Assembly (NCBI GenBank): GCA_045535815.1
Contig: JAZSMJ010000068.1
Coordinates: 5,459-69,458 of the forward strand
DNA from: Eubacteriales bacterium
GTDB lineage: Bacteria > Bacillota > Clostridia > Oscillospirales > CAG-272
Length of the DNA: 64,000 nt
Direction: 5' to 3'
How positions within the stretch are numbered: position 1 is the stretch's first letter; each line of letters begins with the position of its first letter. The notes beneath the pieces are model-generated. The model saw nothing but the letters and a program-made list of their open reading frames with translations. It did not search any database and was not told the DNA's origin. Shown here piece after piece: positions 254-43,575 of the stretch. Made by a program: the position numbers and the translations under genes.

Positions 254-2182
254 TTAATCGCCCGAAACGAAGAAGTTATCGGAATTTTTACTGCCCTCGC
301 CCTTTACGACAAGCTTCTTTATGAACGAATTCTTATCGGTAATGCTTCCGTTCATCATATCTTCCTCTGTAAAGCTTGCAAGGAATATCTCTTTATCGTC
401 AACCCTGTTGAAATCGTAGGTAACGAAAGCTCTTCCGCTTTCGTCGATATGGCCTGCCGGGTAGGAGGTCCATGCACGCTCGTCGAGAAGAAGCTTAGGC
501 TGCCACGTGCGGCACTCGTCCGTGGATATGAACGCCGTCATATTCGAGCGGATATTCGTGTCGTTGTTTGTGACGAGCAGATAATTTCCCGAGGGGAATC
601 TTGCCATATAGCTTCTTGATGAGCAGTGATCCATCAGCTTCTGCGGCTTGCTCCAGTCTCGGCCGAAGTTGAACGATTCGGTGTATGCGATATAATTATC
701 GCATCTGATTATCATATAAATGCTTCCGTCCGATCTCTGAACGATAGCGTTTTCATCAAACGTAGATCTTTCATCGAAGGTGCCGCCAACACGGGTAAGC
801 GGCTTATCGGGGCTCTCGGTTATATAGACGCTTGAATCGCCCCAGTTGGGATAATCGTGGATCTGTCCCTTCCATCTCTGCCAAATGCTTACCGGAAGCA
901 TTACTTTGCCGTCTGCGAGAGTTATCGGAGGGGTTGCCATAACTCCGCTGCAAAGTCTCTTGGGAGCGCTCCATTTAATGCAGTCTCCGTCAATGTCAAG
1001 CTTAATTGCCCAAACTCCGCCTCTGCCGTCCCACCAGTTGTAGGACTGCGCCCAGAAGTGCCATACCGTACCCGCATTGTCACACCACATTATCGGCTCG
1101 TGCATTCTTACCGAATCAATATGGTCGAGAATGCATACGGTCTGCCAGCTGTTACCGTTATCACGGCTTCTCATAATTACGTTGTAATTGTTCGGAGCCT
1201 CGTCTCCGCCAAAGTTGTCTCCGGAAAAAGCACACAGAAGACTGCCGTCAGATGCTCTGCAGGTGCTGGGAGCAGATTGCCATCTTCTGTTTTTGGTGTT
1301 GTAGCAGTCGGCTTCAGACGCTTCTGCTCCGAATATATTTGGGGGAAGCATCGAGCAGTTGACGTCAGGGGTAAGGTTTTCTTTCGTGAAGAATGTCTTA
1401 TTTTTGTAAAGAGAGGATGTGTTACAAGCTCTCTCAAGCTTCCTTCTTGTGTTGAGAGCCTCTTGCTGTATATAGCCTACGTCAACACCGGCAGATATCA
1501 TATCGATTCCCATATTGCTCCAATGCTCGAGCGTCGAAACTGCCGTATCTCCGATTGAAATACCGACATATTTTCCGTTTGCCTTGAGTCTGGAGACGGT
1601 ATCCTCAATAAGATGAGTAGTATTTTCACCGAATATGTTACAAAGCTCGTTTATCGAGCCTGAAAGATCCATCGGACCAAAAATATATCCGTCAATATAT
1701 TCATTCTTCATTATCTCGTCAAGCTCGGCGATGGCATCGGTATGCTCTATCTGAATGAATCTTAAAAGGTTATCTTTTGTATTCCTAACGTAAAACTCAA
1801 CGTCAGAGAAGCCGAAATCTATAGCGTTCATGGGACCGAAGCCTCTGTTTCCATACGGAGGATAGAGAGTAGAGGCTATTCTTTCGTTAGCCTGTTTTGC
1901 AGATCTTATCATAGGGAATATTATTCCGTCCGGCCCCATTTCAAGAACCTTTTTCGTATAGGTAAGATCGTCCTGCGGAACACGGACTATTACTGCAGTT
2001 CCGGTCGTTTTTATGGCGATGATGGCAGACATAAGGCTTTCAAGAGACAAATACGTATGCTCAAGGTCTACCCAGATATAATCGAATCCTGCAAGCCCGG
2101 ATATTCTTGCAGATGCGACATCATTCATATTTAAATGCGTTCCGATGATCTTTTCACCGTTTTTTATCTTTTCTTTTAACAT
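254..2182 (-). CDS. Fusion protein: N-terminal HpcH/HpaI-family (class II 2-keto-3-deoxy-acid) aldolase plus C-terminal sialidase-fold/BNR glycosidase-like domain
   Basis: 642-aa ORF with an AAGGAG RBS. The N-terminal ~250 aa carry HpcH/HpaI motifs (AGFDYIWVDLEH, VIVRVP, YPPYGNRGFG, FIQIEH, IDGYIFGPMDLS). The C-terminal ~370 aa have Asp-box-like motifs (SRDNGNSW, STDECRTW) and are paralogous to the N-terminus of 3143..5221. No signal peptide. Confidence 0.75.
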   Translation of the reverse strand: MLKEKIKNGEKIIGTHLNMNDVASARISGLAGFDYIWVDLEHTYLSLESLMSAIIAIKTTGTAVIVRVPQDDLTYTKKVLEMGPDGIIFPMIRSAKQANERIASTLYPPYGNRGFGPMNAIDFGFSDVEFYVRNTKDNLLRFIQIEHTDAIAELDEIMKNEYIDGYIFGPMDLSGSINELCNIFGENTTHLIEDTVSRLKANGKYVGISIGDTAVSTLEHWSNMGIDMISAGVDVGYIQQEALNTRRKLERACNTSSLYKNKTFFTKENLTPDVNCSMLPPNIFGAEASEADCYNTKNRRWQSAPSTCRASDGSLLCAFSGDNFGGDEAPNNYNVIMRSRDNGNSWQTVCILDHIDSVRMHEPIMWCDNAGTVWHFWAQSYNWWDGRGGVWAIKLDIDGDCIKWSAPKRLCSGVMATPPITLADGKVMLPVSIWQRWKGQIHDYPNWGDSSVYITESPDKPLTRVGGTFDERSTFDENAIVQRSDGSIYMIIRCDNYIAYTESFNFGRDWSKPQKLMDHCSSRSYMARFPSGNYLLVTNNDTNIRSNMTAFISTDECRTWQPKLLLDERAWTSYPAGHIDESGRAFVTYDFNRVDDKEIFLASFTEEDMMNGSITDKNSFIKKLVVKGEGSKNSDNFFVSGD

Positions 2183-2324
2183 TGCATCTTTGCTCCTTTT
2201 TTGTGGATAATTCTATTTTAAAATAACAAATAACGAAAGTAAATTGAATAATTGGCAAAAAACATTGCGTTTCTTGCTGTTATCTGTTATAATAACTTTG
2301 CAAAAAGTAAGGGTAGAGAGATTT

Positions 2325-3128
2325 ATGGCAAGAAATGTGAACTTTTCGTTTAACTCCTCATCGGTAGATTTCGTATATACCGTTGGCAAAAAAAACGTAT
2401 ATAGCGAAATGCAGCTTCATCCGTATTTTGAGCTGTACTTTTTTATCGGCGGAAGCGTAGAATACATAGACGGACATATCCAGCAAAAACTTTCTCCAAA
2501 CAGCCTCGTTGTGATTCAGCCGGGAAGCTATCACCGCTTTCACGTTCCGGGTAATATCGATATATACGAGCGCTGCGTGCTCAATATAAGGCATGACCTT
2601 TTGGAAGGAACCGACCTTGTATCTTTTCTTCGGCAAAGGAGGATACTTGAGCTGTCGGAAAATGACAGAATAACTCAGCATTTCAAATATCTCATATCGT
2701 GCATACCGAATACCGATGTGAAGGATTTTGAGGCAATACTGACCGCTGTAGCATCAGATATACTTTATCTGATAAAATACAGCAGGGAGGGTGAGCCTTC
2801 GGATAAGCCGTCAAGCATTTCCTCTCTTGCAGGGGATATAATGAGCTATATCGACCGAAATTATCAAAAGCAATTAAATCTTGAAGAGCTCTCGGTGACG
2901 TTTAACTATTCGGTATCGCATATAACTCACGTTTTTAAAGAGAAATTTGGTATCAGCATAAAAAATTATATTATACAAAGGCGTCTGAGCTCAGCTCAAT
3001 CGCAGATGCTTTTGGGTGTAAAGACTCAGCAGGCTGCGGCTGGTTGCGGCTTTTCCGATTACGCCTCGTTTTACAGAGCCTACAAAAAGGCATACGGGAG
3101 CTTGCCATCCGAATTGAAGAAGAAATAA
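2325..3128 (+). CDS. AraC-family transcriptional regulator (cupin sensor + HTH_AraC)
   Basis: The C-terminus carries an AraC HTH (LEELSVTFNYSVSHITHVFKEKFGISIKNYIIQRRL...GFSDYASFYRAYKKAYG). The N-terminus is cupin-like. The ATG at 2325 has a better RBS than the TTG at 2244. Confidence 0.85.
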   Translation: MARNVNFSFNSSSVDFVYTVGKKNVYSEMQLHPYFELYFFIGGSVEYIDGHIQQKLSPNSLVVIQPGSYHRFHVPGNIDIYERCVLNIRHDLLEGTDLVSFLRQRRILELSENDRITQHFKYLISCIPNTDVKDFEAILTAVASDILYLIKYSREGEPSDKPSSISSLAGDIMSYIDRNYQKQLNLEELSVTFNYSVSHITHVFKEKFGISIKNYIIQRRLSSAQSQMLLGVKTQQAAAGCGFSDYASFYRAYKKAYGSLPSELKKK

Positions 3129-3142
3129 GATCAAGGTGAAGA

Positions 3143-5221
3143 TCAAGCCTTGATTTTTTCTTTTACGGCAGCAAATATTTCACCTGACGTTATGGTGGCT
3201 GCACCCTCAAGCTCAATTTTTCCGTTGTTTTGGCATTGGCTTTCGGTTGCTGATACAGCGTTTCCGCATATACCGCCTGCACATATATGCTCTATGCAGC
3301 AAATGGATGATACGGTGCCGTTGTTTATGCAGGACTCCATGTGGGAATTTTCCGCAGTTCCTGCTATACCGCCAAGATGCGCAATATCGGCATTGCGTGA
3401 GCATATGCTTCCGTCATTTAGGTTATTTGTAAAACTGATTTTTCCTCCCTTTGCAAAACCGGCTATACCGCCTGCGTGTATGAAGTTGTTGCCTGCAGTA
3501 AACGGAGAATATATATTTGCACTGTTATGGCAATCAGTAACAGCAACGTTGCCGTCGGCTCTGCCAACTATACCTCCCAAAAATTCATATCCTATGACAG
3601 ACACGTCTTTTCCGACCGAGCACGAGCTGACAGTTATCTCATTCTCTCCGTTTGAGTCTGCCCAACCGATGAGCGCTGCGGTATTGTTTCTGCCTTTGAA
3701 ATATGCATTTTCAATATTTACGTTTTTTATTGAACCTGCAGTAACGTATCCGAACAGAGCACGAGTGTGAAGCTCGGGTGCTATCTGCGTAAAATTGGAT
3801 ATTGAGTAGCCTTTTCCGTCATAATGCCCCCTGAATGCTGCCACATTTGAGCCGTGTTGTAAAAAATATCCTATAGGCTGTATATTTGTGCCGCCAAAAT
3901 CTATATCTGCTCGCTGCTCTAAAAACATACCGTCAAACGATATACCTGATGATACGCTTTTAGCAACGTAGCTCAGATGCTGAGGCTTTTCTATCAGAAT
4001 AGGATCGTTCTTCGTGCCGGAGCCTATCGGCTTTTCTGTGTCGGGGAAGGCTGCGGGATGACCCTTTATGCCGGTTTTATCCTTGATTATAAATTTGGTA
4101 CCCGATCCTTCGGTTATAAATTCGCGAGCCAGAACGTCCTCCTCTTTAAATCTTGCAAAAAGTATTTCTGCAGCAACCGTGCGTTCTCTGTCATATTGTA
4201 CGAATACCGTCCCGTCGTCTGCTATCGCTATATCCGGATAAGAAACTCCTTCTCTCTCGTCGAGCATAAGCCCGCCCAGCCAACACTCACCGCCGTCCTT
4301 TGACACGAAAGCGCAAAGCTTGCATCTTGAAGAAGGGGCGGTATCAAAGCTTTCGCCGTGCTTTATGAGAAGTATATTTCCGGAAGGAAGCGTTCGTATC
4401 ATTGCAAGACTTCCAACATGCGGAAATGCTTCCTTCTCGGGAGTCCAGGTAATGCCCCAGTCGCTCGAATACGACTTCTTTATTGACTGACATCGGGAGT
4501 ACATCATAATGCGACCGTCGCAAAGCTCGACTATAGAGTGCTCGTTGAACTGACTGTCCTTGAAGGTTATACCGCCTCTTCTGTGCCAGGTTTCGCCCTG
4601 ATCGACCGAGGCATAAACGTGTGCCCCTCTTAAGCTGTCAAGGTCTGTATGGCATTTTTTTAATATTCTGCAAACGTGCCATCTTTCCCACACTGATACG
4701 GGCAGGAGCCATTCGCCCTTTGAAGTAACTATAGGCTTTTTTAAAGATGCTCCGATGCTTATATATTTAGGATCACTCCATATGGGCTCTTCTGCATCGG
4801 GGTTATCGCATATAATAGCGTAATTTGCTCCTTCTCCATCCCACATTCCGAAAGACTGCTGATAGAAAAGCCAAAGCCTTCCGAGAGGATCCTGCCAAAG
4901 ACATCCAATGTGTGTGTTCATAATAAAAGGATTATTATCGTTATGAGGATCGATTATCAGCTTGATATTATTCCAGCTTTCTCCTCTGTCATCACTGTAT
5001 GTTGCTATAAGATAAGCTCCGGATCCGTCTTCTCCGCCTATCCAGCAGCTCCACAGTCTTCCTTTTTTTGTTATTTCAATGCTTGCCTGCATTGCGAAAT
5101 ACTTATAATTCTGAAAATACTCCACTGACGGCGAAAGCTTTATCTGCGCAGGCTTTTTTATTAGCGCCAAAGCCTCGTTTGAATATATTTTATCGGTTGT
5201 GCATTTTTTTTCAATGATCAT
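3143..5221 (-). CDS. Sialidase-fold/BNR glycosidase-like protein with C-terminal GLUG-motif repeats
   Basis: The N-terminal ~380 aa have Asp-box motifs (YSDDRGESW, SVDQGETW, SSDWGITW, SKDGGECW). The C-terminal ~250 aa have GGIVG/GGIAG/GGIAG/GGICG repeats roughly every 25-30 aa (GLUG type). ATG at 5219-5221 lies 9 nt after a GGAGAGG RBS. No signal peptide. Confidence 0.75.
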   Translation of the reverse strand: MIIEKKCTTDKIYSNEALALIKKPAQIKLSPSVEYFQNYKYFAMQASIEITKKGRLWSCWIGGEDGSGAYLIATYSDDRGESWNNIKLIIDPHNDNNPFIMNTHIGCLWQDPLGRLWLFYQQSFGMWDGEGANYAIICDNPDAEEPIWSDPKYISIGASLKKPIVTSKGEWLLPVSVWERWHVCRILKKCHTDLDSLRGAHVYASVDQGETWHRRGGITFKDSQFNEHSIVELCDGRIMMYSRCQSIKKSYSSDWGITWTPEKEAFPHVGSLAMIRTLPSGNILLIKHGESFDTAPSSRCKLCAFVSKDGGECWLGGLMLDEREGVSYPDIAIADDGTVFVQYDRERTVAAEILFARFKEEDVLAREFITEGSGTKFIIKDKTGIKGHPAAFPDTEKPIGSGTKNDPILIEKPQHLSYVAKSVSSGISFDGMFLEQRADIDFGGTNIQPIGYFLQHGSNVAAFRGHYDGKGYSISNFTQIAPELHTRALFGYVTAGSIKNVNIENAYFKGRNNTAALIGWADSNGENEITVSSCSVGKDVSVIGYEFLGGIVGRADGNVAVTDCHNSANIYSPFTAGNNFIHAGGIAGFAKGGKISFTNNLNDGSICSRNADIAHLGGIAGTAENSHMESCINNGTVSSICCIEHICAGGICGNAVSATESQCQNNGKIELEGAATITSGEIFAAVKEKIKA

Positions 5222-8506: not shown

Positions 8507-10726
8507 TTATTCTGTAATTTCTACAAGCTTAAGTGAGGATATTGCAAAAACGGTGTCACCCTCCGAGAGAGCGTTATCGTTTCCAAAAATAATGAAGAAT
8601 GAATTGAAATCACGAACATTGAAGGAGCCGCCTATAGAATTAAAGGTGATAAACCAGGTGTTCCAGCCTTTTTCAATGCTTTTCCAAAGCTGTTTGCTGC
8701 TGCTTACTCCGTAATCAAGGCGGGTCTTGATATCATAATCTCCCGGCTTTGAAAGATTATTTCCGGATTTAGATACAGAATTGCCCCAGAACATACGGTA
8801 TACAGTAGAGGGATCGGTGATTTTCTTTGAGCTGTAAAAGGTCATAACGAAGCCGAGGCGGTCTATATCAGTCTTTGACAGATCAACGTTAAAGTGACGT
8901 CTCAGTGTTTGGTTGCCGGCTGATATGGCGGTTGAAGACTGCTTGCGGCATACTGCGTTAACACCGTCTATTTTTTCATAGGCAACGTTATTTTTACCCG
9001 TAGAGCCGTCGCCTGTCCACCATGAGTCCGAGTCAACAAGCTCGCAGATAACTGTATGCTCGGGAATGGCAACATCCTTACCTGCGTATGCCTGCTCGTA
9101 GAGTACGGACTGATAGTTGGGATCGTAATCCTTAGGCTCTATAGATGAAAGAGGTACTATAGCAAGCTCGCAGTCCTCTTTGTTTTTGGCGTATACCACG
9201 TAGAGATTTCCGTCTGCCTCGTATGCATAAGGGTAGCTCCACTCATTCGACGCCCAGTAAACAGGCTTGGAATCAAATACGTTTTTGAGAATATATGACG
9301 TGGTAAATCCATAGGATCCGTCCTTTTCTCCTACCGATATCATCATAGTTGCACGCGAACCTAAGTTGTAAACTATATATTTGCTTCCTGTGCTGAGAGT
9401 ACCGCCGTATACCTTTGAATCGGCAATATTGAAATCTGAAAGAGTAAACGAGGTCCACGTTTCACCGTTGTCAAAGCTTTGGCTTACCGCCATTTTTGAA
9501 GATGCCGATCTTATAAATGCAACAAGTCTGTCACCGTAATCGACGACCGATGTCTCTCCCCACACAGAAAGATTGTTTTTGTTCGGAAGTGTTATCATTC
9601 TCCACGAGGTAAGGTCATCTCCGTCAGATATTGCAACTGCCGGAGCAGCACCGCTTTTGCAGTTGAGCCCTGCAATAAGAATGTTTCCGTTTTCAAGCAC
9701 CATAGGCTCGCAAAGAGGCCAGAAATTCTCATCAAGGACGGTGCCGTGCGATTCCCAACTCATATCCTCGCAAAGTGTATATGCTTCCATAACCAGACCG
9801 GGGTATCCTCCACCGTGACCGTACATCGCCTTGGGGGCAAACGCCCAGACTGTGTTCTCGTATTCAAACAGAACTCCGTGGCTTCTTGAATAGCGTCCTT
9901 CAGGACCCGCTATTACAACCTCTTCGCTCCATGTCTTACCCATGTCGTAGGAATACTTGCAGGCAAATCGTGAGCCTGAATCGTTTTCGGTAAGGAGTCC
10001 CTGGCCGTAGGCGCAGATAAGAAAACCGTCGTGCTTTATGATAGATGCGCCCAAAAGGAAATGGTGTCCGTCTGCCTGAGCCTTATGTACGGAAACGTAT
10101 TCAATATCCTCAGCAAAGGTAACATCGCCGTTTTTGGGGTTAAGCTTTGCGTTATTTATAAGCTCCATATCAGGGTAGATCTCCTCCGTGGGTTTTTTAA
10201 GCAGGTTAAATGACAAAATTGAAACGTCAATAGCATCTATAAACATATCGGAATTTATATCAGCTGATGCGTATGCAGCCGGTCCTGCAGACTTTCCGAT
10301 ATCGTATGATAAAGCCGAAACGTCACCGGCGTCAATAAAGCCGTCTCCGGTAATGTCACCGGGAGTAAGAGCAATTTCCGATATTCCGGGAATATACGTC
10401 TCGGTAAGATCAATGCTTGAGCTTACGTCGATGCCCTTTACAGTGTATCCAAGATTGTTACCGCCAGATATAACAAGATCGTATATACCGCTCTCAAGTC
10501 CCGAGAGAGAGAATTTACGTTCGATAGCATCAGAGCTCTTTACGGGCTCAAGGATAGTGTGGCATATCTCAATTCCGTTACAAAGGGCGGTAATTTTAGT
10601 TTCGGAATAGTTGAAATAACCGATTATGTTTCCGCTTATACCGAAGTCAGCTGCATAAACTGTAAACGATACTGATAATAGAATTAAAGCAAAAGCAAAG
10701 GTAAATAAAATCTTAATTTTTTTCAT
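8507..10726 (-). CDS. Secreted dockerin-containing sialidase-fold/BNR protein with a C-terminal CBM-like domain
   Basis: Signal peptide MKKIKILFTFAFALILLSVSFTVYA, then an Ig-like module. A dockerin duplicated motif follows (GDITGDGFIDAGDVS...ADINSDMFIDAIDVS). The BNR domain has SYDMGKTW and SFDNGETW. The last ~190 aa are beta-rich. Confidence 0.75.
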   Translation of the reverse strand: MKKIKILFTFAFALILLSVSFTVYAADFGISGNIIGYFNYSETKITALCNGIEICHTILEPVKSSDAIERKFSLSGLESGIYDLVISGGNNLGYTVKGIDVSSSIDLTETYIPGISEIALTPGDITGDGFIDAGDVSALSYDIGKSAGPAAYASADINSDMFIDAIDVSILSFNLLKKPTEEIYPDMELINNAKLNPKNGDVTFAEDIEYVSVHKAQADGHHFLLGASIIKHDGFLICAYGQGLLTENDSGSRFACKYSYDMGKTWSEEVVIAGPEGRYSRSHGVLFEYENTVWAFAPKAMYGHGGGYPGLVMEAYTLCEDMSWESHGTVLDENFWPLCEPMVLENGNILIAGLNCKSGAAPAVAISDGDDLTSWRMITLPNKNNLSVWGETSVVDYGDRLVAFIRSASSKMAVSQSFDNGETWTSFTLSDFNIADSKVYGGTLSTGSKYIVYNLGSRATMMISVGEKDGSYGFTTSYILKNVFDSKPVYWASNEWSYPYAYEADGNLYVVYAKNKEDCELAIVPLSSIEPKDYDPNYQSVLYEQAYAGKDVAIPEHTVICELVDSDSWWTGDGSTGKNNVAYEKIDGVNAVCRKQSSTAISAGNQTLRRHFNVDLSKTDIDRLGFVMTFYSSKKITDPSTVYRMFWGNSVSKSGNNLSKPGDYDIKTRLDYGVSSSKQLWKSIEKGWNTWFITFNSIGGSFNVRDFNSFFIIFGNDNALSEGDTVFAISSLKLVEITE

Positions 10727-10748
10727 TTTCTGTATGACCTCATTTTAT

Positions 10749-11435
10749 TTATTGTTTTTCGGTTAAATCACTCAGGTTATTGAATATGCCGTTTACGTGG
10801 AAAATCATAGCCTTTTCTGCCTCATTTGCAGATCCCTTGGCTATTGCCGAGACAATATCCTTATGCATTGATATCGCGTGCACGCCGTTTCCTTCAACAG
10901 CGAAAAGGTTAGCTCTGTAATCGGTAAGCTTTTCGTTCAGTATAGATAATATGGAGATCAGCACCTCGTTTTTTGAAAGCTCGGCTATCTTCATATGAAG
11001 ACGGTCGTCACTCTCCGCCATGCCGATGGGGTCATTTTTAGCATATGCATCCTCGTATCTGTAAAGCAGTCCCCAAAGGAACGTAACCTCATCCTCGCTT
11101 GCGTTTTTGGCTGCAAGTGATGCGCAGAGCGGTTCGATAGCTCTTCTTGCTTCAAGGATATCCTTTAAAGCGTACTTATTTTTTGCAAGCCAGCCTGATG
11201 CACTTTTGCTTTCACTCGGCAAATCTTCAGATACGAACGCACCGCGACCGGGCTTTATTTCAACGTATCCCGCCGCCTCAAGTGAGCGCAAAGCCTCTCT
11301 GAGACTTGTTCTGCTGACCGATAGAGTGGAGCAAAGCACTGCTTCAGACGGAAGCTTTTCTCCAAGCGGATACGCTCCCGACTTTATGTTTTTTCTAAGC
11401 TGTTCAAAAACGGTATTTGCAACTGTTTTTTTCAT
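10749..11435 (-). CDS. GntR-family regulator, FadR subfamily (FCD domain)
   Basis: The N-terminus is a GntR HTH (LPSEAVLCSTLSVSRTSLREALRSLEAAGYVEIKPGRGAFV). The C-terminus is an all-helical FCD-like domain. Confidence 0.85.
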   Translation of the reverse strand: MKKTVANTVFEQLRKNIKSGAYPLGEKLPSEAVLCSTLSVSRTSLREALRSLEAAGYVEIKPGRGAFVSEDLPSESKSASGWLAKNKYALKDILEARRAIEPLCASLAAKNASEDEVTFLWGLLYRYEDAYAKNDPIGMAESDDRLHMKIAELSKNEVLISILSILNEKLTDYRANLFAVEGNGVHAISMHKDIVSAIAKGSANEAEKAMIFHVNGIFNNLSDLTEKQ

Positions 11436-11702: not shown

Positions 11703-12691
11703 GCTGTGACGGCAGCGAGGGCGCTGTTATAACCGAGCAGACGAGCGAGGGCACGGATGCCGAAGCCGTTATCGAGATGACTAGGGCCGAGCAGGATGAA
11801 ACGGAGGAAACCGTTGAATATACCGAAACGGAACCCGAAGTGCAGAGTGAAACAGAGCCTGAATCTCTTACGGAAACAGAGCCCGAATCGGAGGACGAGG
11901 TATATACAGAGCAAAGCGTCGGTGTGACCGATATAAGCCTTTCAACCTATGACGTCAGCATAATAGTAGGGCAGTCAAAAATGCCTATCGTTACCATGTA
12001 TCCCGAAAATGCCACCGATAAGGGCGAGAAATGGGTAAGCTCGGATGAATCGGTCGCAAGCGTTAATTGGTACGGTGATATCCTGGGAGTCTCCGAGGGT
12101 GAATGCACCGTAACGGTCACCTCGACGGATAATCCAGAGGTGTTTGCAACCGTAAACGTTAAGGTAACGCCGGACGTTGAGTGCACCTACATAGATGGAA
12201 TACTCATAGTTAACAAGACCTATCCGCTTCCCATGAGCTATGCTCCCGGGAACGATCAGGAGGCGGTGGATGCGCTGTACGTTATGTTTGCCGCCGCAAA
12301 GGAGGAGGGTCTTACGCTTTTTGTCAAATCGGGCTACAGAAGCTATATCGACCAGAAGATAATATATAACGATTACGTTGCAAGAGACGGACAGTCGGTC
12401 GCCGACAGATATTCCGCACGCCCCGGACATTCGGAGCATCAGAGCGGTCTTGCCTTTGATCTGAACTCGCTTATGCAGGATTTCGGAGAGAGCCCGGAGG
12501 GAATATGGCTTGCCGAAAACTGCTATAAATACGGATTTATCATAAGATACCCCAAGGATAAAGAAGAAATAACCGGCTATATGTACGAGCCCTGGCACGT
12601 TCGCTATCTTGGAATAGATACGGCAGAGAAGGTATATGAAAGCGGCCTATGCCTTGAGGAATATCTCGGGATAACGTCGTCGTATTCGTGA
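11624..12691 (+). CDS. Lipoprotein D-alanyl-D-alanine carboxypeptidase (peptidase M15B/VanY family) with acidic linker and Big_2-like domain
   Basis: Lipobox LILQGC, an ETEPE-type acidic repeat linker and a Big_2-like segment. VanY motifs are SGYRSY, SEHQSGLAFD and EPWHVRYLG. The ATG at 11624 has an RBS, and the longer annotated N-terminus is unlikely. Confidence 0.8.
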   Translation: MNYRKLKNRYSPLLLLIAVILALILQGCDGSEGAVITEQTSEGTDAEAVIEMTRAEQDETEETVEYTETEPEVQSETEPESLTETEPESEDEVYTEQSVGVTDISLSTYDVSIIVGQSKMPIVTMYPENATDKGEKWVSSDESVASVNWYGDILGVSEGECTVTVTSTDNPEVFATVNVKVTPDVECTYIDGILIVNKTYPLPMSYAPGNDQEAVDALYVMFAAAKEEGLTLFVKSGYRSYIDQKIIYNDYVARDGQSVADRYSARPGHSEHQSGLAFDLNSLMQDFGESPEGIWLAENCYKYGFIIRYPKDKEEITGYMYEPWHVRYLGIDTAEKVYESGLCLEEYLGITSSYS

Positions 12692-14193: not shown

Positions 14194-15120
14194 ATGATAG
14201 TGTACAAGGAGCTTTCTTCAATCGAGAGGGATCTCGGTATCCCTGCAAAAACGCTCTACGGAGTCAGTAATAATATATCGGCACATTACCGAAAGGTTAA
14301 GATTCCCAAAAGGGACGGAAGCTACCGTGTGCTGTCCGTTCCGGACGAGGTGCTGAAAAGGATACAGCGATCTATCGCCCTGAATCTTTTGGCATACGAG
14401 GAGATCTCGGTATACGCAAAGGCCTACAAGATAGGTGCAGGCGTGAAAAATAACGCTCTGCCGCATATCGGAAAGAGCTCTGTGCTAAAGCTGGATATAC
14501 GGAATTTTTTTGACAGCATTACCTATTCCTCGGTAAAAGAAAAGGTCTTTCCCGAAAATAAATATTCGGAAAAGATCAGAATACTTCTATCCATGCTCTG
14601 CTATTGCGGTGAGGTGCTTCCTCAGGGTGCGCCTACCTCGCCCGTCATTACCAATATCATAATGAGGGATTTTGACGAGACAGTCGGCGCATGGTGCGCT
14701 CTGCGCTCGGTAAGCTATACAAGATACTGCGACGATATGACCTTCTCGGGAGAGCTTGATACCGATGAGATCATAGAGTTCGTTTCGGATCAGCTTAAAA
14801 AGCGCGGCTTGTTTTTGAATAAAAGCAAGACTAAGCACGCACGTTTTGGTCAAAGACAGACCGTTACCGGAATAGTCGTAAACCAAAAGATAAATATATC
14901 GAGCGAATATAAGCGCAAGATAAGGCAGGAGGTCTTTTATTGCCGTAAATTCGGTGTAGAGGGGCATCTTGCGAGGATAGGGGAGGATATTTCACCCGCA
15001 AAATATTTAAGCAGTCTTATGGGACGCATAAACTACGTTTTGCAGATGCTTCCCGAAAACGAGGAGTTCAAAGGCTACAGATCAGCCGTCTCCGATATGA
15101 TAAAAAATGAAAATAAATAA
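14194..15120 (+). CDS. Retron-type reverse transcriptase
   Basis: 308 aa with motifs NALPH (NAxxH), LDIRNFFDSI, LPQGAPTSPVITNI, YTRYCDDMTFS (YxDD) and the retron-typical VTGIVVN. Confidence 0.85.
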   Translation: MIVYKELSSIERDLGIPAKTLYGVSNNISAHYRKVKIPKRDGSYRVLSVPDEVLKRIQRSIALNLLAYEEISVYAKAYKIGAGVKNNALPHIGKSSVLKLDIRNFFDSITYSSVKEKVFPENKYSEKIRILLSMLCYCGEVLPQGAPTSPVITNIIMRDFDETVGAWCALRSVSYTRYCDDMTFSGELDTDEIIEFVSDQLKKRGLFLNKSKTKHARFGQRQTVTGIVVNQKINISSEYKRKIRQEVFYCRKFGVEGHLARIGEDISPAKYLSSLMGRINYVLQMLPENEEFKGYRSAVSDMIKNENK

Positions 15121-15147: not shown

Positions 15148-16392
15148 TTATGATGCCGCTTCAAGCATATTTTCTATAAAGATTCCGTAGCCTCTCGTAG
15201 GGTCGTTTACAAGAACGTGGGTCACTGCTCCGATTATACGTCCGTCCTGTATGATGGGTGAGCCGCTCATTCCCTGAACGATTCCGCCGGTTGCTTGAAG
15301 AAGAGCCGGATCGGTGACCTCAACTATAAAGTTTTTCGTTTGAGAATTCATATCGCAGATGCGTTCTATATTTACCGAATACTGATTTACCTTGTTATCG
15401 TCAAGGGTGCAGTATATAAATGCCTCGCCTTCCTTGACCTCGCTCTTGAGAGCGATAGGTATTGCATTTGATGCAAGGCTTTGCGGTATCGAATCTATTT
15501 TACCGTAAACTCCGGTTCCTGTATTGGCTGAAAGTGTTCCTATATTTGCAGTGCCGAAAAAGCCCTTGAGCTCTCCCGGAGTGCCTTTTATTCCCTTGGT
15601 TATTCCGCTGACGGTAACGTTTACCACAGATCCCTTTAAAAGAGGCATCAGCTCCTCGGTGTCTATATCGCATATGCCGTGTCCCAGCCCCGCAAACGCA
15701 CCGCTTGAGGGATCTATATAGGTAACGGTGCCTATTCCTGCGGTGCTGTCTCTTATCCATATACCTGCCTTGTATTTTCCGTCAGATGATGAATACACGG
15801 GCCTTAGTGTAAAATTACATTCATTCTCGCCACGCATCAGCTTGATCGTTACGGCACTGCCGTTACATTCTTCAATAGCTGCACTCACCTGCGCCGCTGA
15901 GTTTACCTCCTTGCCGTTTATCTCGGTAATTATATCCTTTATCCGTATACCTGCATCGGAAGCGGGATTTGAGGTGCTGCCGTCATCCGAGACAACGTCT
16001 GACAGTCCGACGACTATGACTCCCTTGGTATAAAGCTTCACACCGAACGCCATCCCGCCGGGATAGAGAACGGCACGGTCATAGACTCGAACGTCCACCT
16101 CCTTTATATTTATCGAATCAAAAAGCTTAGCGGCGGCGGTATAGCTTCCGACAAAGCCGTTTGAAGAGGCGGGCAGCTCGTTCATTTGGTCGGACGAGAC
16201 CGTTATAAACGGGCAATTTATACTCGGTGTGTCTGCGGCATAAACGGATATGCTGTCCGGTATGGCATTATCAAGCACACCGCAGACGGCACATATCGAC
16301 GCAAACAGCGAAAACAGCAGTATCGGAAGCGAAGGCATTCGTTTTTTGAAGTGAGGCATTGTTTTGCGTGCTTTAAAAATAGAAAAATTCAT
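15148..16392 (-). CDS. spoIVB: SpoIVB peptidase (S55, PDZ-containing stage IV sporulation signalling protease)
   Basis: The C-terminus GGIVQGMSGSPIIQDGRIIGAVTHVLVNDPTRGYGIFIENML is diagnostic, and there is a PDZ-like middle region. The start may be a downstream Met. Confidence 0.85.
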   Translation of the reverse strand: MNFSIFKARKTMPHFKKRMPSLPILLFSLFASICAVCGVLDNAIPDSISVYAADTPSINCPFITVSSDQMNELPASSNGFVGSYTAAAKLFDSINIKEVDVRVYDRAVLYPGGMAFGVKLYTKGVIVVGLSDVVSDDGSTSNPASDAGIRIKDIITEINGKEVNSAAQVSAAIEECNGSAVTIKLMRGENECNFTLRPVYSSSDGKYKAGIWIRDSTAGIGTVTYIDPSSGAFAGLGHGICDIDTEELMPLLKGSVVNVTVSGITKGIKGTPGELKGFFGTANIGTLSANTGTGVYGKIDSIPQSLASNAIPIALKSEVKEGEAFIYCTLDDNKVNQYSVNIERICDMNSQTKNFIVEVTDPALLQATGGIVQGMSGSPIIQDGRIIGAVTHVLVNDPTRGYGIFIENMLEAAS

Positions 16393-38562: not shown

Positions 38563-38609
38563 GATATGATTTACACACCTTTTTTACGGCAATAATAGCC
38601 GTAAGAGAG

Positions 38610-38807
38610 GTGTTTGTTATTTTAGTGAGAAGATACCTGAACGGAGAAGAAACAAGCCCTGAGGGGCTTGTTATTGCCGCACAAAACAGTGCTGCTTTTG
38701 ATGAAGAGGTAAAAAGGGCAAGACAACGGATAATCAAGGATAAGAGCCGTTTCATGCACGGTATTTCTTCAAGGGGCGAGAGTGCATACAAAATAAATGA
38801 AAAGTAA
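38610..38807 (+). CDS. Small hypothetical ORF overlapping the recombinase start. Coding status is uncertain.
   Basis: 65-codon ORF ending 11 nt inside the recombinase gene. The RBS geometry for the GTG start is poor and no recognisable domain is present. Confidence 0.25.
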   Translation: MFVILVRRYLNGEETSPEGLVIAAQNSAAFDEEVKRARQRIIKDKSRFMHGISSRGESAYKINEK

Positions 38808-40173
38808 AAAGACGGCGGCTCTGTATGCAAGAGTCTCGACCGAGGCGCAGTGGGAAGAGGGCTATTCGATAGATGCACAGAAGGATATGCTGATAGCCTG
38901 CTGCCGTGCAAAGGGAATAGAGAACTTTGAGCTTTATATAGACGGCGGATATTCGGGAAGCACACTTGACAGACCCGAGATAAAAAGACTTTGCTCTGAC
39001 GTTAAAAACGGAAGGATAGACTGCGTTATCGTCTATAAGCTTGACAGACTTTCGAGAAGTCAGAAGGACACCCTATATCTTATTGAAGACGTATTCAATC
39101 CAAACGGTGTGGATTTTATCTCTCTCAATGAGAATATGGACACCGCAACTCCGATAGGCAGAGCAATGCTCGGCATAATGTCCGCCTTTGCACAGCTCGA
39201 GCGTGAGACCATAAAGGAAAGAACGAGAATGGGAATGCTTGAGCGTGTGAAGCAGGGATATTGGATGGGCGGCGGAAGAATCCCGTTTGGATACGATTAC
39301 GATAAGGAAAAGGGAATACTCGTGCCCAACAGCGATGCCGCAGTTGTAAAAAGGGTGTACGAGCTGTATCTTGCAGGATATTCGCTTATGAGTATTGCAA
39401 ATAAACTTGGGCTCGGTTACGAGCGTCTTGCACGGCAGATACTATTAAGAAAGACAAACGCAGGGTATATAGTCTACAACGGAAAGGAATACAAGGGGCT
39501 TCATCAGCCGATAATCGACGAGGCTACCTATAACAAAGCGATAGCTCTTTTTGAAAAGCGGTCAAGGGGAAGGCTTAAGGGTGCTGACAATCTTTTGACA
39601 GGGCTTATATACTGCGGTGTTTGCGGAGCAAAAATGCGGTATCAGAAATGGGGCAGGAGCGGTTATAAAATATACTGCTATTCGCAGGATAAGGGAAAGC
39701 CCCATCTGTCAAGGTCGGACGAGTGCGACAATCATAAAATATGGGCGCACGAGCTTGAGGATATCGTAACCGAGGACCTTTTCAGAATGGCGCATAAAAA
39801 GGTCAGCGGTGAGATAGAAGAGGGCGAGGTATCGGATATTGAAATACTGAAGGGCAGGCGAGAGGGAGCAGTTAAGCGCCTGAGGCGCTTATACAAGCTT
39901 TATTCTCAGTCTGATGACAGTGTTCTTATCGACGCCATAAATGAAATAAAGGAAGAAATATCAGAGATAGATGCAAGGATAGAAGCAGAAGAAAAGCTCC
40001 TGTCAAAAAGCACGGCAGATATTGAAAGCTACGAAGAGCTTGCAACTATGGAGGGCGTCTGGCAGTATATGACAAAAAAGGAAAAGCAGCACGTGTTCAG
40101 AAGCTATATCGATAAGATAGTGGTAAGCTACGATAAGGTGGACATATACTATACGCTCCCTGCGAAAACGTAA
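38797..40173 (+). CDS. Large serine recombinase (resolvase catalytic domain + recombinase domain + zinc ribbon + coiled coil), SpoIVCA/CisA-like architecture
   Basis: The N-terminus AALYARVSTEAQ...YSIDAQ contains the catalytic Ser. Also present are VIVYKLDRLSRS and SAFAQLERETIKERT. The zinc ribbon is CGVCG...C...C, followed by a C-terminal coiled coil. Confidence 0.9.
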   Translation: MKSKKTAALYARVSTEAQWEEGYSIDAQKDMLIACCRAKGIENFELYIDGGYSGSTLDRPEIKRLCSDVKNGRIDCVIVYKLDRLSRSQKDTLYLIEDVFNPNGVDFISLNENMDTATPIGRAMLGIMSAFAQLERETIKERTRMGMLERVKQGYWMGGGRIPFGYDYDKEKGILVPNSDAAVVKRVYELYLAGYSLMSIANKLGLGYERLARQILLRKTNAGYIVYNGKEYKGLHQPIIDEATYNKAIALFEKRSRGRLKGADNLLTGLIYCGVCGAKMRYQKWGRSGYKIYCYSQDKGKPHLSRSDECDNHKIWAHELEDIVTEDLFRMAHKKVSGEIEEGEVSDIEILKGRREGAVKRLRRLYKLYSQSDDSVLIDAINEIKEEISEIDARIEAEEKLLSKSTADIESYEELATMEGVWQYMTKKEKQHVFRSYIDKIVVSYDKVDIYYTLPAKT

Positions 40174-40209
40174 AAACAGACGATACGATGTTTCCACCGT
40201 ATCGGCTGT
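40172..40209 (-). terminator. Terminator of nhaC, abutting the recombinase stop codon
   Basis: 12-bp stem acagacgatacg/cgtatcggctgt with 1 mismatch. The U-run on the minus strand corresponds to the A-run at 40172-40176. Confidence 0.65.
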
Positions 40210-40229: not shown

Positions 40230-41783
40230 TTATTTTGCCGTATTTCTTGCACGCTGTCTTAAGAAGAGAACTGCAACGGCAAAGATAACGAGTGCTACTA
40301 CCCACATGATTACGCAGCAGATAAGTCCGCCGAGCGAAGCGGCAAGACCTGCAACGAGGTAAGCGATAGCAGCTATAACTGCTACCAGGCCTGCGTACGG
40401 AAGCTGTGTGTTAACATGGTCAACGTGGTTACACTGCGCACCTGCAGAAGCGAGGATGGTGGTATCGGAAATGGGAGAAATGTGGTCTCCGAATACCGCA
40501 CCGCCAAGTGTTGCGGAAACGGTGAGTATGGCAAGTGTACCGCTGCCGCCGAGAATTGTAACTGCTATAGGAACGAGAACGCCGAAGGTTCCCCATGAAG
40601 TACCTGTAGCAAATGCTATAGCACCTGCAAGGATAAAGAATATTGCAGGGAAGAGGAACTGCGGGAATGCGCTGTTTGCAAGGTTAGCTTCAACGAATGA
40701 CTGAGCGTCAAGATATCCGCCCTTTGCACCCATGATACCGGAAATGGACCATGCAAACGTAAGAATAAGTATAGCGGGAACCATTGCCTTGAAGCCCTCT
40801 GTAAAGCTTCCGGTAATTTCCTTGAAGGAAACTACCTTTGTAAGCATATAGTAAACCGAGATTATAATAAGTGCGATAGTAGAACCGATAGCAAGGGACA
40901 TACCTGCATCACAGTTGGAGAAAGCTTCGATAACGTTTGCAGACTGAAGCTCTGTGTCGATAAGACCGGTATCCCAGTTGTAGTAGAAGCCTGTGAATAT
41001 CATACCGCCTATGCAGCAGATGATAAGAATGATAACGGGAATGACGAGGTGACGAACCTTACCCTTGGGGTTAGCCTTGATCTCATCATTGCTTTCGGCG
41101 TCTTCGGTTTCACCTGCGAAAAGGTCACCTGTGGTTTCAGCTACGTACTCGTTCTTCTTCATCTTTGCGAAATCGAACTTGAAGAAGCAAAGAGCAAATA
41201 CCATTATAATGGTAAGAAGCGCATAAACGTTAAAGGGGATAGTGCTTATAAATACCATAAGACCGTCGCCCTCAAGCTCACCTGCTACTGCAGCAGCCCA
41301 GCTGGATATGGGAGCGATGATACATACGGGAGCGGCAGTTGCATCAATTATGTATGCAAGCTTTGCTCTTGATACCTTAAATTTGTCTGTAACGGGACGC
41401 ATAACCGATCCGACTGTAAGGCAGTTGAAATAGTCGTCAACGAAAATGAGACAGCCAAGTCCTGCCGTAGCAGCAAGAGCACCGCTCTTTGACTTGATCT
41501 TTTTGCCTGCCCAGTCACCGTAAGCCTTAGCGCCTCCGGACTTCTGCATAAGAACAACGAGTATACCGAGGACTACGAGGAATACGATGATCGTGGTGTT
41601 AGCACCAACCTTTTCGCTCATAACCTGGTAAAGTGTGAATAACGCCTTAAGCGGATTACCGCCTGCGTACATGAATGAGCCGACGAGGATACCGAGGAAT
41701 AACGAAACGTAAACCTGCTTGGTAGCCAGAGCCAGCACAATGGCAATAAGTGCGGGTAAAAACGCCCATAATGTACCTGCCAT
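40230..41783 (-). CDS. nhaC: NhaC-family Na+/H+ antiporter-type transporter, possibly a lysine or basic-amino-acid transporter given its riboswitch
   Basis: 517 aa with about 12 TM segments and NhaC-family sequence character. It is preceded by an L-box leader. Confidence 0.8.
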   Translation of the reverse strand: MAGTLWAFLPALIAIVLALATKQVYVSLFLGILVGSFMYAGGNPLKALFTLYQVMSEKVGANTTIIVFLVVLGILVVLMQKSGGAKAYGDWAGKKIKSKSGALAATAGLGCLIFVDDYFNCLTVGSVMRPVTDKFKVSRAKLAYIIDATAAPVCIIAPISSWAAAVAGELEGDGLMVFISTIPFNVYALLTIIMVFALCFFKFDFAKMKKNEYVAETTGDLFAGETEDAESNDEIKANPKGKVRHLVIPVIILIICCIGGMIFTGFYYNWDTGLIDTELQSANVIEAFSNCDAGMSLAIGSTIALIIISVYYMLTKVVSFKEITGSFTEGFKAMVPAILILTFAWSISGIMGAKGGYLDAQSFVEANLANSAFPQFLFPAIFFILAGAIAFATGTSWGTFGVLVPIAVTILGGSGTLAILTVSATLGGAVFGDHISPISDTTILASAGAQCNHVDHVNTQLPYAGLVAVIAAIAYLVAGLAASLGGLICCVIMWVVALVIFAVAVLFLRQRARNTAK

Positions 41784-41821
41784 GTGTTTTTTCCTCCTTA
41801 AAAATTATAATGGAAAAATAA

Positions 41822-42030
41822 AAAATCACGGCACTATCAAATACCGTGATCAAACGACCAAATATCCAATAGCACAACACTTAAAAAAGTGACAGTCGCA
41901 CCGATGTTATCGTTGCGCCCGAATCTGAACGCCCGGGCAACGTTCAAACTCTCGGTGACCATTCCTTTACCGCGCAGACCAAGTCCCCGTCTGCGTTTAT
42001 CATAATGACCACGCCTCTATTGTGATTTAT
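41822..42030 (-). promoter_or_regulatory. Lysine riboswitch (L-box) with intrinsic terminator expression platform
   Basis: On the minus strand: ATAGAGGCG..., GGTAAAGG, GTCACCGAGAG, CCCGGGCG and GCGACTGTCAC resemble the conserved L-box blocks AGAGGCGC, CTGAAAGG, GCCGAAG, CCTGG and ACTGTCA. A terminator atcacgg...ccgtgat+U7 follows at 41826-41852. Confidence 0.65.
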
Positions 42031-42036
42031 GTAGAA

Positions 42037-42065
42037 AGTATAGCATAGTATGACATATTTGTCAA
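42037..42065 (-). promoter_or_regulatory. Sigma-A-type promoter of the L-box-nhaC unit
   Basis: On the minus strand: TTGACA (42060-42065), 17 nt, TATACT (42037-42042). Confidence 0.6.
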
Positions 42066-42117
42066 TAATTTTTAAAAATTATAAGGCAAAGCAAACGAAT
42101 TTTGTTATTTTATATAT

Positions 42118-42160
42118 AAAAAACGGATATAACGCATAAAACTGCGGAATATCCGTTTTT
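42118..42160. terminator. Terminator after the DUF4145/HsdR-fragment gene
   Basis: acggatat...atatccgt stem flanked by an A-run and a T-run. Confidence 0.5.
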
Positions 42161-42161
42161 A

Positions 42162-42821
42162 CTATTCATTAAATCCGTTTGATATTATATCGTCCCTGTA
42201 GGAATCGTCGTACTGCATATAATCGTCGTATATCCTTTTCGTTTTGTCTATAGTCATATCAACAGGCTTTGGGATATAAGTTTGACGGTGCTCTGCTCGG
42301 CGTGCGGTCAGCTCCTCACGCAGCGACTTGTTTTCTTTTATAAGAGCTCCTATATCAACGCTTGAATTCGGAACGAATGAAAGCGCTTCGGCAACCGTCA
42401 GCTCGAGTAGCGACTCATCAAAATCACGCTTTTCGTATTCTGTAGCATAGCAGTATGCAAGAAAGTCAAGAAAAACGAAAAGATTCTCAAGGCAGAGCCG
42501 AGCTTCGTCACGGCTTATCTCCTTATCGCCGTGAGCGGCTGCGTTTCCTATCTTGCGGACTATGTCCATGCGCATCCAGATATCTTCTCCGACCAAAGAC
42601 CTGAACTCGTCCTCACGCATAAGCGAATAGAGCGATTGCTCTCCGTGGCACTCAAGCTCGCTGTCCACCGAAAACATCCATTTAACAGCAAATTCCATAG
42701 CTCTTCTGCAGTTAAGAACGCAGGCGTCAACGTCGATATGTAAAAGCTGCTCGGCAGAGATCGCAACGTCAGCAAAAGAAGCAAAATCGGGTGTCTTAAG
42801 TAAAAAATCGAAATTTGTCAC
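42162..42821 (-). pseudogene. DUF4145-type domain + coiled coil. Probably the truncated N-terminal fragment of a type I restriction enzyme R subunit (hsdR).
   Basis: The GTG start has a GGAGG RBS. The sequence NFDFL...FASFADVAISAEQLL...CVLNCRRAMEFAVKWMF...IRKIGNAAAHG resembles the N-terminal DUF4145 module of HsdR proteins. The ORF ends where the HsdR nuclease/helicase core would begin. Family name is from memory. Confidence 0.5.
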
Positions 42822-42881
42822 GGTCTCCTCCTTTGAATATTTCTTGTACCTATATATTATACACTCAGCCGTGTGCAAATG

Positions 42882-43208
42882 TCAATCGGTAAGATCCCTT
42901 TTTCCACATCCGATATTCATCGGCACAGCGTAAGTGGAAAACTTAACGTCAAGCTCGGTATTGAAGTTATCAACCGCCTTTATAAGTCCTATACAGCCGA
43001 CCTGAAACAGATCGTCAAGATTCTCGCCTCGGTTTGTAAATCTCTGAATTATACTCAGAACCAAACGGAGATTTCCGTCAATAAGCTCCCGTCGTGCCTC
43101 GCCGTCTCCCGCAGCGGCCTTTTTGAGCAGATCTGTTTTTTCGGCGTCAGTCAGCGTTTTGAGCTTAGCGGTGTTAACACCGCATATTTCGACTTTATTA
43201 TAATGCAT
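42882..43208 (-). pseudogene. sigG: 5' fragment of the forespore sigma factor gene sigG (regions 1.2-2.4 only)
   Basis: MHYNKVEICGVNTAKL...GNLRLVLSIIQRFTNRGENLDDLFQVGCIGLIKAVDNF...KFSTYAVPM matches SigG. After PM (42918) the expected IIGEIRRYLRD is replaced by NIGCGKRDLTD-stop. A GGAGGG RBS lies 8 nt upstream of the ATG at 43206-43208. Confidence 0.8.
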
Positions 43209-43369
43209 GGAAGCAGCCCTCCGATAGAGCAAATATATTGAAATTATTACATAAAAAGTATTGCCGACCATACGCTTTGCTTATTCAGAAAAGAGCTTAT
43301 TTCCTAAAATAGGAAATGGGAGAAAGGGAAGGAAATTATTCAATATTCACCAGCGAAGCGACTTCATTT

Positions 43370-43499: not shown

Positions 43500-43575
43500 T
43501 GGAGCTACTACCCAGATTCGAACTGGGGACCTCATCCTTACCAAGGATGTGCTCTACCAACTGAGCCATAGTAGC
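43500..43575 (-). tRNA. tRNA-Thr (anticodon GGU) with encoded CCA
   Basis: The reverse complement gctactatggctcagttggtagagcacatccttGGTaaggatgaggtccccagttcgaatctgggtagtagctcca folds as a cloverleaf (7-bp acceptor stem, anticodon loop ttGGTaa, T-loop gttcgaatc). Confidence 0.9.

Follow-up and report, generated by a model that had tools for sequence, protein, structure and literature searches.

The DNA considered here is a stretch of 64,000 nucleotides from a Eubacteriales bacterium (contig JAZSMJ010000068.1), hereafter called the window, and it carries on its minus strand the first half of sigG, the gene for the forespore sigma factor SigG, together with the gene for a large serine recombinase that reads towards the point at which sigG is broken. 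The sigG 5' half occupies 43208..42918 (minus) and comprises codons 1-97, which encode regions 1.2 to 2.3 and the start of region 2.4. The open reading frame (ORF) that contains it runs on the minus strand from an ATG at 43208 to a stop codon at 42884-42882, encodes 108 aa, and is preceded by a GGAGGG ribosome-binding site (RBS) at 43222-43217. Among the NCBIfam models, the top match of the product is the SigG equivalog NF006071 (160 bits, E 5e-47, positions 1-108 of a profile of 258), with 154 bits for a second SigG equivalog, TIGR02850, and lower scores for SigF (109 bits), SigK/SigE (~70 bits), and the generic sigma70-ECF (extracytoplasmic function) superfamily (54 bits). The 160 bits lie under the SigG equivalog cut-off of 372 bits, being those of a half gene and not of a full-length protein with regions 2, 3, and 4, and Pfam recognizes Sigma70_r2 alone. 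The fragment is sigG, and neither sigF nor the gene of an ECF sigma factor. An original prediction, made from the letters of the window, had already placed a SigG N-terminal ORF with a good RBS at 42882..43208 (minus), in agreement with both the coordinates and the SigG models, and the outcome that it named as fatal to this assignment, a better fit to an ECF or other non-sporulation sigma factor, is the reverse of what these scores give. When a sequence of Bacillus subtilis SigG was used as tblastn query, residues 1-109 aligned to 43208-42885, and the rest of the 64-kb window gave no further SigG match and no region 3 or 4 in any frame, as had been predicted.

The break falls directly after codon 97 (42920-42918), and homology ends past Met97: intact relatives read ...KFSTYAVPM-IIGEVRRYLRDN, and the window reads ...KFSTYAVPM-NIGCGKRDLTD followed by a stop (over a longer stretch across the break, ...KFSTYAVPMIIGEVRRYLRDN in the relatives and ...KFSTYAVPMNIGCGKRDLTD-stop in the window). 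The tail outside the gene, NIGCGKRDLTD with its stop codon (42882..42917, minus), is the translation of the arm of a recombinase attachment (att) site, and the ~20-22 nt past the break are conserved as DNA, regardless of frame or stop codons. The core CCGATGA (42923-42917), made up of Pro96, Met97, and one further base, and the element-side arm ATATCGGATGTGGAAAAA together form an attL-type junction at 42895..42923 (minus; TTTTTCCACATCCGATATTCAT on the plus strand), which reads CCGATGA-ATATCGGAT-GTGGAAAA in the window and ...ATATACGAT-GTCGAAAA in contig L001. Orphan 3' halves of sigG are preceded by the mirror image, TTTTCGAC-N14-CCGATGAT..., with the core CCGATGA following the N14; the arm of the 5' halves, of the form TTTTC..C-N-ACATTCAT, is an inverted repeat of the arm before the 3' halves, CCGATGA is common to both junctions, and the symmetry centre appears to be the CC of the Pro codon. 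Translated tails differ in every genome except for N[IV] and a G/R-K/N dipeptide, the latter because the arm contains GAAAAA. As read from the sequences, the two junctions have the anatomy of a large serine integrase's attL and attR.

A serine recombinase beside the junction and a short core flanked by inverted-repeat arms, as expected of an intervening element, are both found. What the window holds is the promoter-proximal part of a sigG gene that is divided at codons 96/97, where a large serine recombinase has its attachment site. The DNA past the break had been described beforehand as foreign; it is indeed unrelated to sigG, but it is not merely foreign, as a conserved recombinase-binding arm lies directly at the break. 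The original prediction had also advised looking for a short sequence common to both junctions, and CCGATGA emerged as such when the window and other 5' halves were compared with orphan 3' halves. The 3' half of the source genome is predicted to read TTTTTCCAC-N14-CCGATGATHATHGG followed by a 161-aa ORF, and the rejoined gene is predicted to contain GTGCCGATGATTATCGG.

Upstream of the fragment, a promoter of the sigma-F/G type lies at 43256..43287 (minus), with the -35 element TGAATA at 43287-43282 and the -10 element GGCAATACTT at 43265-43256; TGAATA and CAATACT (43263-43257) are 18 nt apart. The pattern TGnATAA-N16-G[GT]CAATA[AC]TT is kept upstream of 5' halves in unrelated genomic contexts (L001, L005, L102/L103), and the earlier suggestion that the fragment retains a native promoter of forespore type is borne out by this conservation and by the position of the elements.

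The recombinase gene (38797..40173, plus) encodes 458 aa, and its stop codon is 2745 nt from the sigG break. The protein has the catalytic, recombinase, and zinc-ribbon domains of a large serine recombinase or phage-type integrase (Pfam Resolvase PF00239, Recombinase PF07508, and Zn_ribbon_recom PF13408), a length within the ~450-550 aa of such enzymes, and a match to the PHROG integrase family phrog_95 with E 2e-119. Directly before it, a small ORF of 60 aa (38625..38807, plus; GTG start at 38625; MRRYLNGEE...) is a candidate recombination directionality factor, a role suggested by its position and by a size like that of GirX (PMC5595907). Nearly all recombinases of this clade have such an ORF before them, 40-60 aa long and with the motif M.I.RY.NGK...A[IV]..V..R, and the window copy matches that of L025 with a pairwise E of 0.003; searches of Pfam and PHROG returned no family for it. 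This cassette has a promoter-like site of its own at 38568..38597 (plus), composed of GATTTA (38568-38573), N14, and GGCAATAATA (38588-38597). A box G[GT]NAATA[AC]T, situated 25-45 nt upstream of the small ORFs and often preceded by G[TA][TA]TA some 15 nt earlier, was found in 22 of 54 windows around such ORFs, against an average of 0.4-0.6 and a maximum of 4 in controls. The cassette box fits the B. subtilis sigma-F consensus GywTA-N15-GGnrAnAnTw and appears to be the same kind of site as the box before the sigG 5' halves, which points to compartment-specific expression. Between recombinase and arm, a hairpin GATACG-ATGTTTCCAC-CGTATC (40180..40205, plus) begins 7 nt after the recombinase stop, and its loop holds the heptamer TTTCCAC, which recurs at 42903-42909 in the att arm. 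The hairpin probably serves as a terminator, and it might mark where the arm originally lay. A second att site right after the recombinase stop was considered and set aside: only this hairpin with its shared 7-mer lies there, and it is conserved nowhere else.

Whether the recombinase belongs to the break can be judged from its relatives. One genome per GTDB species was scanned with the recombinases of the window and of the L009 type, which gave 338 relatives, and the best 80 were examined; these are 53-63% identical, and all come from metagenome-assembled genomes (MAGs) of gut Clostridia. A sigG half abuts the recombinase in 28 of these best 80, with 18 recombinases converging on a 5' half and 10 running into a 3' half; the distance to the recombinase stop is mostly 15-45 nt. 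The recombinase of L008-L011, 49% identical to that of the window, is similarly placed, with a 3' half 46 nt past its end. In the remaining 52 of the best 80 no half directly adjoins the recombinase; given relatives with no sigG half nearby, the clade has other targets as well, or acts at a distance. Beside such relatives, neither a palindrome of the attP state nor extra copies of the arm were found. As a separate observation, members of the closest group (L022, L025-L031, L034, L062) lie downstream of polC, like the window recombinase, and have the same small ORF and -10 box; the recombinase, at ~10001-11356 in most of them, is followed by a terminator and an AraC-type gene, with no sigG half within 10 kb. 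In L057, the recombinase (1954-3333, plus) has the -10 box and no recognizable small ORF, and a divergent 3' half (7-483, minus) whose arm is normal is found 1.5 kb upstream of it; the cassette therefore occurs in either orientation relative to the junction. In L009, a gene for a small acid-soluble spore protein (PF00269; 7930-8133) is directly upstream of the unit of small ORF, recombinase, and 3' sigG; genes of this kind are usually under sigma-G control.

The decisive comparison is with L029, which is collinear with the window through polC, the his operon, the small ORF, the recombinase, the arm, and the 5' sigG half, at ~55-70% protein identity. In L029 the arm is found ~100 nt past the recombinase stop, and a 2.7-kb insertion which in the window parts the two is absent. 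This shared derived arrangement means that the split is older than the divergence of the two lineages, and L029 settles the link between the window recombinase and the break. The tie between recombinase and broken sigG that was surmised at the outset is supported by these distances, and the comparison with related genomes that was then recommended has yielded a syntenic locus where recombinase, arm, and 5' half are all kept. Besides the window, at least five further species (L039, L061, L068, L074, L077) have ordinary chromosomal genes next to the cassette.

Further evidence comes from the way in which the half gene has been maintained. Across eleven 5' halves, nonsynonymous differences per site (pN) are 0.10-0.24 and synonymous ones (pS) 0.73-0.99, with synonymous sites saturated; the window half is 84-88% identical to other 5' halves, and its comparison with L029 gives a pN of 0.165 against a pS of 0.92. 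These values indicate that the window 5' half has been under purifying selection since it diverged from L029. They bear on the view that phages simply inactivate sigG and that their carriers do not sporulate, a later rearrangement having stranded the 5' half here, with an intact sigG absent or elsewhere. Such a view would agree with the lack of a 3' half within 64 kb, the 2.7-kb insertion between recombinase and arm, the nearest recombinase relatives having no adjoining sigG half, and the frequent loss of sporulation among gut Firmicutes. It is hard to square, however, with a 5' half that stays conserved and open in the syntenic relative when synonymous sites are saturated, with the intact state of arm, promoter, RBS, small ORF, and recombinase in the window, with the absence of interruptions from all 28 recombinase-adjacent halves of the GTDB scan, and with orphan 3' halves kept at exactly 161 aa. 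The sporulation gene spoIVB (15148-16392) is intact as well, as had been noted before, its product passing the SpoIVB equivalog cut-off (394 vs 305 bits). The dead relic that the original prediction offered as its alternative is thus disfavoured by purifying selection, conserved att arms, and an intact cassette, and we retain it as a quite unlikely explanation; the bolder proposal of the same prediction, a programmed rearrangement, is better supported.

The split is far from confined to this genome. Three protein searches, in which no match longer than 1.75 times the query was returned, gave 335 related proteins, and 89 of them are 5' halves broken at the same codon, a number which puts the break far beyond chance. 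These proteins follow SigG through ...AVPM and then continue into unrelated tails, with N[IV] directly after AVPM in 55 and I[IV] in 22; their gene neighbourhoods are unrelated, and the promoter is kept. Another 115 of the 335 are orphan 3' halves that start with MIIGE, 45 of them being exactly 161 aa long. With two patterns that fit split junctions only (STYAVPMN; F[MI]PMIIGE), 268 split junctions were confirmed in termite, ruminant, and human gut metagenomes. Since hundreds of metagenomic Clostridia have the break at this very codon, with a conserved arm next to it, random decay does not account for the break. Two attempts at pairing halves over long distances came back empty: a junction-specific metagenome scan for both halves on long contigs returned, among its best 80 matches, nearly exclusively 3' halves and no long-range domesticated pair, and matching 5' with 3' halves on one contig through sample accessions and the like gave no pair. 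As a side observation, in L109/L172 (IMGVR_UViG_3300045988_111132, ~41,962-42,219) a stretch right after the 5' half matches the start of the C-terminal half of SigG at 31% identity; the match is weak, and could reflect a diverged copy, a phage sigma gene, or chance.

So many ~100-aa ORFs, found in varied contexts with a good promoter and RBS, might also be taken for stand-alone proteins, fragments with the sigma-2 domain that act in their own right, for example as decoys for core RNA polymerase in the forespore, with no rejoining intended. We regard this as most improbable. The proteins end in unrelated C-terminal tails of any length, what is conserved past codon 97 is the DNA, even beyond stop codons, and matching orphan 3' halves and recombinases exist. 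The excess of ~100-aa homologues was also dismissed as a biological signal in its own right, as it stems in part from the length filter of the search; the short proteins themselves are real, and lie on long contigs.

Complete elements in other genomes reveal what the two halves enclose. The entire element of L084 (= L180), from a termite-gut Defluviitaleaceae MAG, measures 2.5 kb and reads on one strand as 5' half, arm, 185-aa ORF, tRNA-Thr, tRNA-Trp, small ORF, recombinase, arm, and 3' half, and joining the halves of L084/L180 at the core restores an in-frame ...AVPMIIGEIRRY... sequence. Its two tRNA genes, tRNA-Thr(GGT) and tRNA-Trp(CCA), are at 9500-9689. Elements of the same build, with direct halves, are present in L245 (2.7 kb) and L181 (8.4 kb). 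At the other end of the size range, five IMG/VR proviruses carry both halves on the same strand at distances of 55.8, 58.2, 60.1, 77.5, and 106 kb, and these halves mostly mark the extreme ends of the provirus as predicted; the 5' half of the 106-kb provirus (L105) is followed by genes for phage lysis and tail fibres, and the 77.5- and 106-kb proviruses have near-perfect inverted-repeat arms, e.g., CTTTTTCACCCTCCATA. Thus, of an in-frame split into 5' and 3' segments, the window holds the 5' segment, and L084, L181, L245, and the five proviruses hold both. The likeness to the sigK intervening element skin that was claimed at the outset finds support here, in full elements of relatives with both halves and a precise predicted rejoining.

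A second recombinase lineage (532 aa, 31% identical) belongs to an element resembling integrative and conjugative elements (ICE-like; L012-L021), with ArdC-N, helix-turn-helix (HTH), and HsdM genes, which joins sigG ~10 nt further 3' (...PMIIE|GGEN; L012:10291-10310). Because two unrelated recombinase lineages, as well as prophages and mini-elements, sit in the stretch coding for AVPMIIGE, this stretch is, by all sequence indications, a repeatedly used integration site, for anything from large prophages to a bare cassette. Three independent contigs of the ICE-like element, L016-L018, end within 40 nt of its junction, as if the population were mixed. L196 is the only contig with inverted halves, which surround a 2.9-kb segment holding the recombinase. 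It was at first a candidate proof of an inversion switch and has been downgraded: a repeat of ~300 bp, similar to a miniature inverted-repeat transposable element, is present in three copies (9560-9870, 10600-10900, 12480-12560), two of which, inverted, flank the 3' half, and such repeats allow a mis-assembly or a flip by homologous recombination.

The co-occurrence of split and intact alleles invites the thought of phase-variable sporulation, in which a stochastic flip or excision in growing cells would give sigG-ON and sigG-OFF lineages as a form of bet-hedging, with no step specific to the forespore. A split (L102) and an intact (L103) sigG allele from different samples share 98% DNA identity, contigs L016-L018 stop at the junction as those of mixed populations would, and serine recombinases are common drivers of phase variation. 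On the other hand, the cassette box is of the same sigma-F type as that of sigG, in favour of compartment-specific expression; L016-L018 belong to the different, ICE-like element; and large serine recombinases, unlike small invertases, are directional and need a directionality factor. We hold phase variation to be unlikely.

The split of sigG is best appreciated next to the systems already known. SigG acts in the forespore, which is the germ line of the sporulating bacterium. The sporulation-gene elements described so far all interrupt mother-cell genes (PMC4191935, PMC5595907, PMC10747680, PMC13492144), the yabG element being another such case (PMC10747680), and they excise in the terminally differentiated cell alone, which lets the spore pass the element on. 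Excision from sigK is never inherited, as the mother cell dies (PMC4191935, PMC5025042), and the spsM rearrangement is confined to the mother-cell genome, with the prophage staying in the spore (PMC4191935). A 2026 review gives sigK and spsM as the only rebuilt sporulation genes and has sigG only in the form of phage-encoded homologues (PMC13492144). Our searches of the full-text literature found no report of an interrupted sigG. The skin, SPbeta, and gin class of elements is characterized by residence in a mother-cell gene, and the window departs from it in this respect, since its gene is the forespore sigG.

The closest structural parallel is skin in sigK (spoIVCB/spoIIIC, with the recombinase SpoIVCA; B. 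subtilis and Clostridioides difficile). Both cases have a sporulation sigma gene split within its coding sequence, a large serine recombinase near one junction, a short common core, a precise predicted rejoining, and a range from phage-like to reduced elements. They differ in that sigK functions in the dying mother cell and sigG in the forespore, and in that the DNA beside the window cassette is essential chromosome (his operon, polC) and not a dispensable element. SPbeta in spsM (integrase SprA, directionality factor SprB) is an active temperate phage resident in a sporulation gene, with a serine integrase and a small directionality factor under sporulation-specific control, and the 56-106-kb sigG proviruses resemble it. 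A sigG prophage, in contrast, would have to leave the spore's own chromosome. The gin element in gerE of Bacillus cereus, with its GirC recombinase, its 42-aa directionality factor GirX of no known motif, and a ~9-bp common core (PMC5595907), has the same format as the 2.5-2.7-kb sigG elements (L084, L245) and the window cassette; gerE, however, is a mother-cell gene, and GirX has no detectable sequence relation to the small protein of the window at the level of family libraries. The fdxN, nifD, and hupL elements of heterocystous cyanobacteria (XisF and others) likewise rebuild a gene by developmental excision with site-specific recombinases, and the window recombinase matches the XisF model with E 1e-43, under its cut-off; there, however, the cell is terminally differentiated, and the phylum and target genes are others. 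The nearest precedent for a reversible event in the germ line is active lysogeny, as with phi10403S in the Listeria gene comK and SpyCIM1 in the Streptococcus gene mutL, in which excision and reintegration switch host genes reversibly in dividing cells (PMC13492144). Active lysogeny differs in being neither developmental nor linked to sporulation, and among its cases there is no precedent for inverting or splitting an arc of essential genes.

If the split is what it appears to be, carriers probably have to rejoin sigG in the cell that founds the next generation. How they might do so can be pictured as follows, in an explanation that we consider probable, at roughly 60%. Temperate phages of gut Clostridia would integrate at the exact sigG site, and their reduced descendants would keep the small protein and the recombinase; the window lineage would be a vertically inherited, domesticated form whose 3' half lies beyond the window. 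In the early forespore, sigma-F would direct transcription of the cassette as well as from the sigG promoter. Aided by the small protein as directionality factor, the recombinase would recombine attL with attR into an intact sigG, which would then be transcribed from its own sigma-F/G promoter. In mini-elements and prophages, whose halves are direct, the product would be an excised circle, which need not be lost if there is no division before germination, and which the recombinase alone could reintegrate.

For the window genome, rejoining would have to take another form. The 3' half is not in the window and hence, if the genome has one, lies at a distance of more than 20.7 kb on one side or more than 38.6 kb on the other. 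The junction has essential genes to either side, with PolC, pyrH, and the his operon on one side and ffh, rpsP, and ThrS on the other. Because of these genes, rejoining would here amount to an inversion of a chromosomal arc or to a temporary split of the chromosome into two rings. Which of the two it would be depends on the strand of the 3' half, with an inversion for opposite strands and two rings for a shared one. Afterwards, the split state could be restored by the recombinase acting without the directionality factor. We put forward only tentatively, and hold well short of even odds, the full scheme in which a sigma-F-driven recombinase rebuilds sigG in the forespore through arc inversion or two rings, the split is restored before or at germination, and sigG prophages, as the ancestral form, leave the chromosome at each sporulation and ride in the spore as episomes.

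Several points weigh against reading the window as a functional split. Its recombinase stands 2.7 kb from the arm, the 3' half is absent from the 64 kb, and several of the closest recombinase relatives (among L022, L025-L031, and L062; 61-63% identical) lack a sigG half within 10 kb. No small ORF adjoins the prophage recombinases (38-39% identical). The assignment of the promoters to sigma-F/G is one of resemblance to the B. subtilis consensus, and the box is also a 5/6 match to a sigma-A -10 element. The comparative data come almost entirely from MAGs and metagenome contigs, the sole contig with inverted halves (L196) may be a mis-assembly, and the polymorphism of split and intact alleles could be plain gain and loss of elements. 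Recombination, for every member of the group, is predicted from sequence.

The accepted reason for mother-cell targets is that excision does no harm in a genome that will be discarded, the spore keeping the element. A split of sigG that is widespread and maintained by selection breaks this mother-cell-only rule. Either hundreds of species of gut Clostridia recombine their DNA in the founder cell, or temperate phages routinely gate the sporulation of their hosts, and both readings bear on the host-to-host transmission of spore-forming gut commensals as well as on the carriage of phages in spores. The germ-line reading, if true, would amount to a programmed, reversible rearrangement of a bacterial germ line. 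In practice, 'sporulation signature' calls on MAGs are affected, because annotation either turns a split sigG into two short sigma-70 proteins or misses it. The system is also a source of serine integrases, a family whose 7-bp core is defined and whose arms are symmetric, and its tiny candidate directionality factors may form a new class.

Turning to the surroundings, the order in the window is his operon, small gene, recombinase, 2.7-kb insertion, att arm, and convergent 5' sigG half. The secondary insertion (40230..42878, minus) consists of an ORF resembling DUF4145 and the HsdR N-terminus (42162-42878, minus), a lysine riboswitch (41862-42027, minus; 76 bits), and an NhaC-family transporter gene (40230-41783, minus), both proteins being assigned by family models. 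The block of HsdR-like gene, riboswitch, and nhaC that the original prediction saw fused to the break is present, but it is a later insertion beyond the arm, missing from the syntenic L029; no repeats bounding it were found. Beyond the recombinase are the his operon, PolC, a cluster of the pyrH-frr-uppS-cdsA-dxr type, SpoIVB, and a retron-type reverse transcriptase; family models were applied to pyrH and PolC, and the rest of the pyrH cluster is named from gene order and ORF sizes. Upstream of the fragment come tRNA-Thr, a KH-domain gene, rpsP, ffh, ylxM, and, further on, thrS. GC skew across the junction tracks gene orientation and is uninformative. The tRNA-Thr(GGT) gene is at 43500-43575, 290 nt upstream of the 5' half, and a tRNA-like sequence is seen by eye upstream of the 5' half of L001 too; the presence of tRNAs near sigG halves in the window and L001, and inside the L084 mini-element, may be a coincidence. 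Lastly, the retron-type reverse transcriptase gene (14194-15120, plus) is directly beside spoIVB, and its product scores 218 bits with the retron St85 model, whose cut-off is 235.

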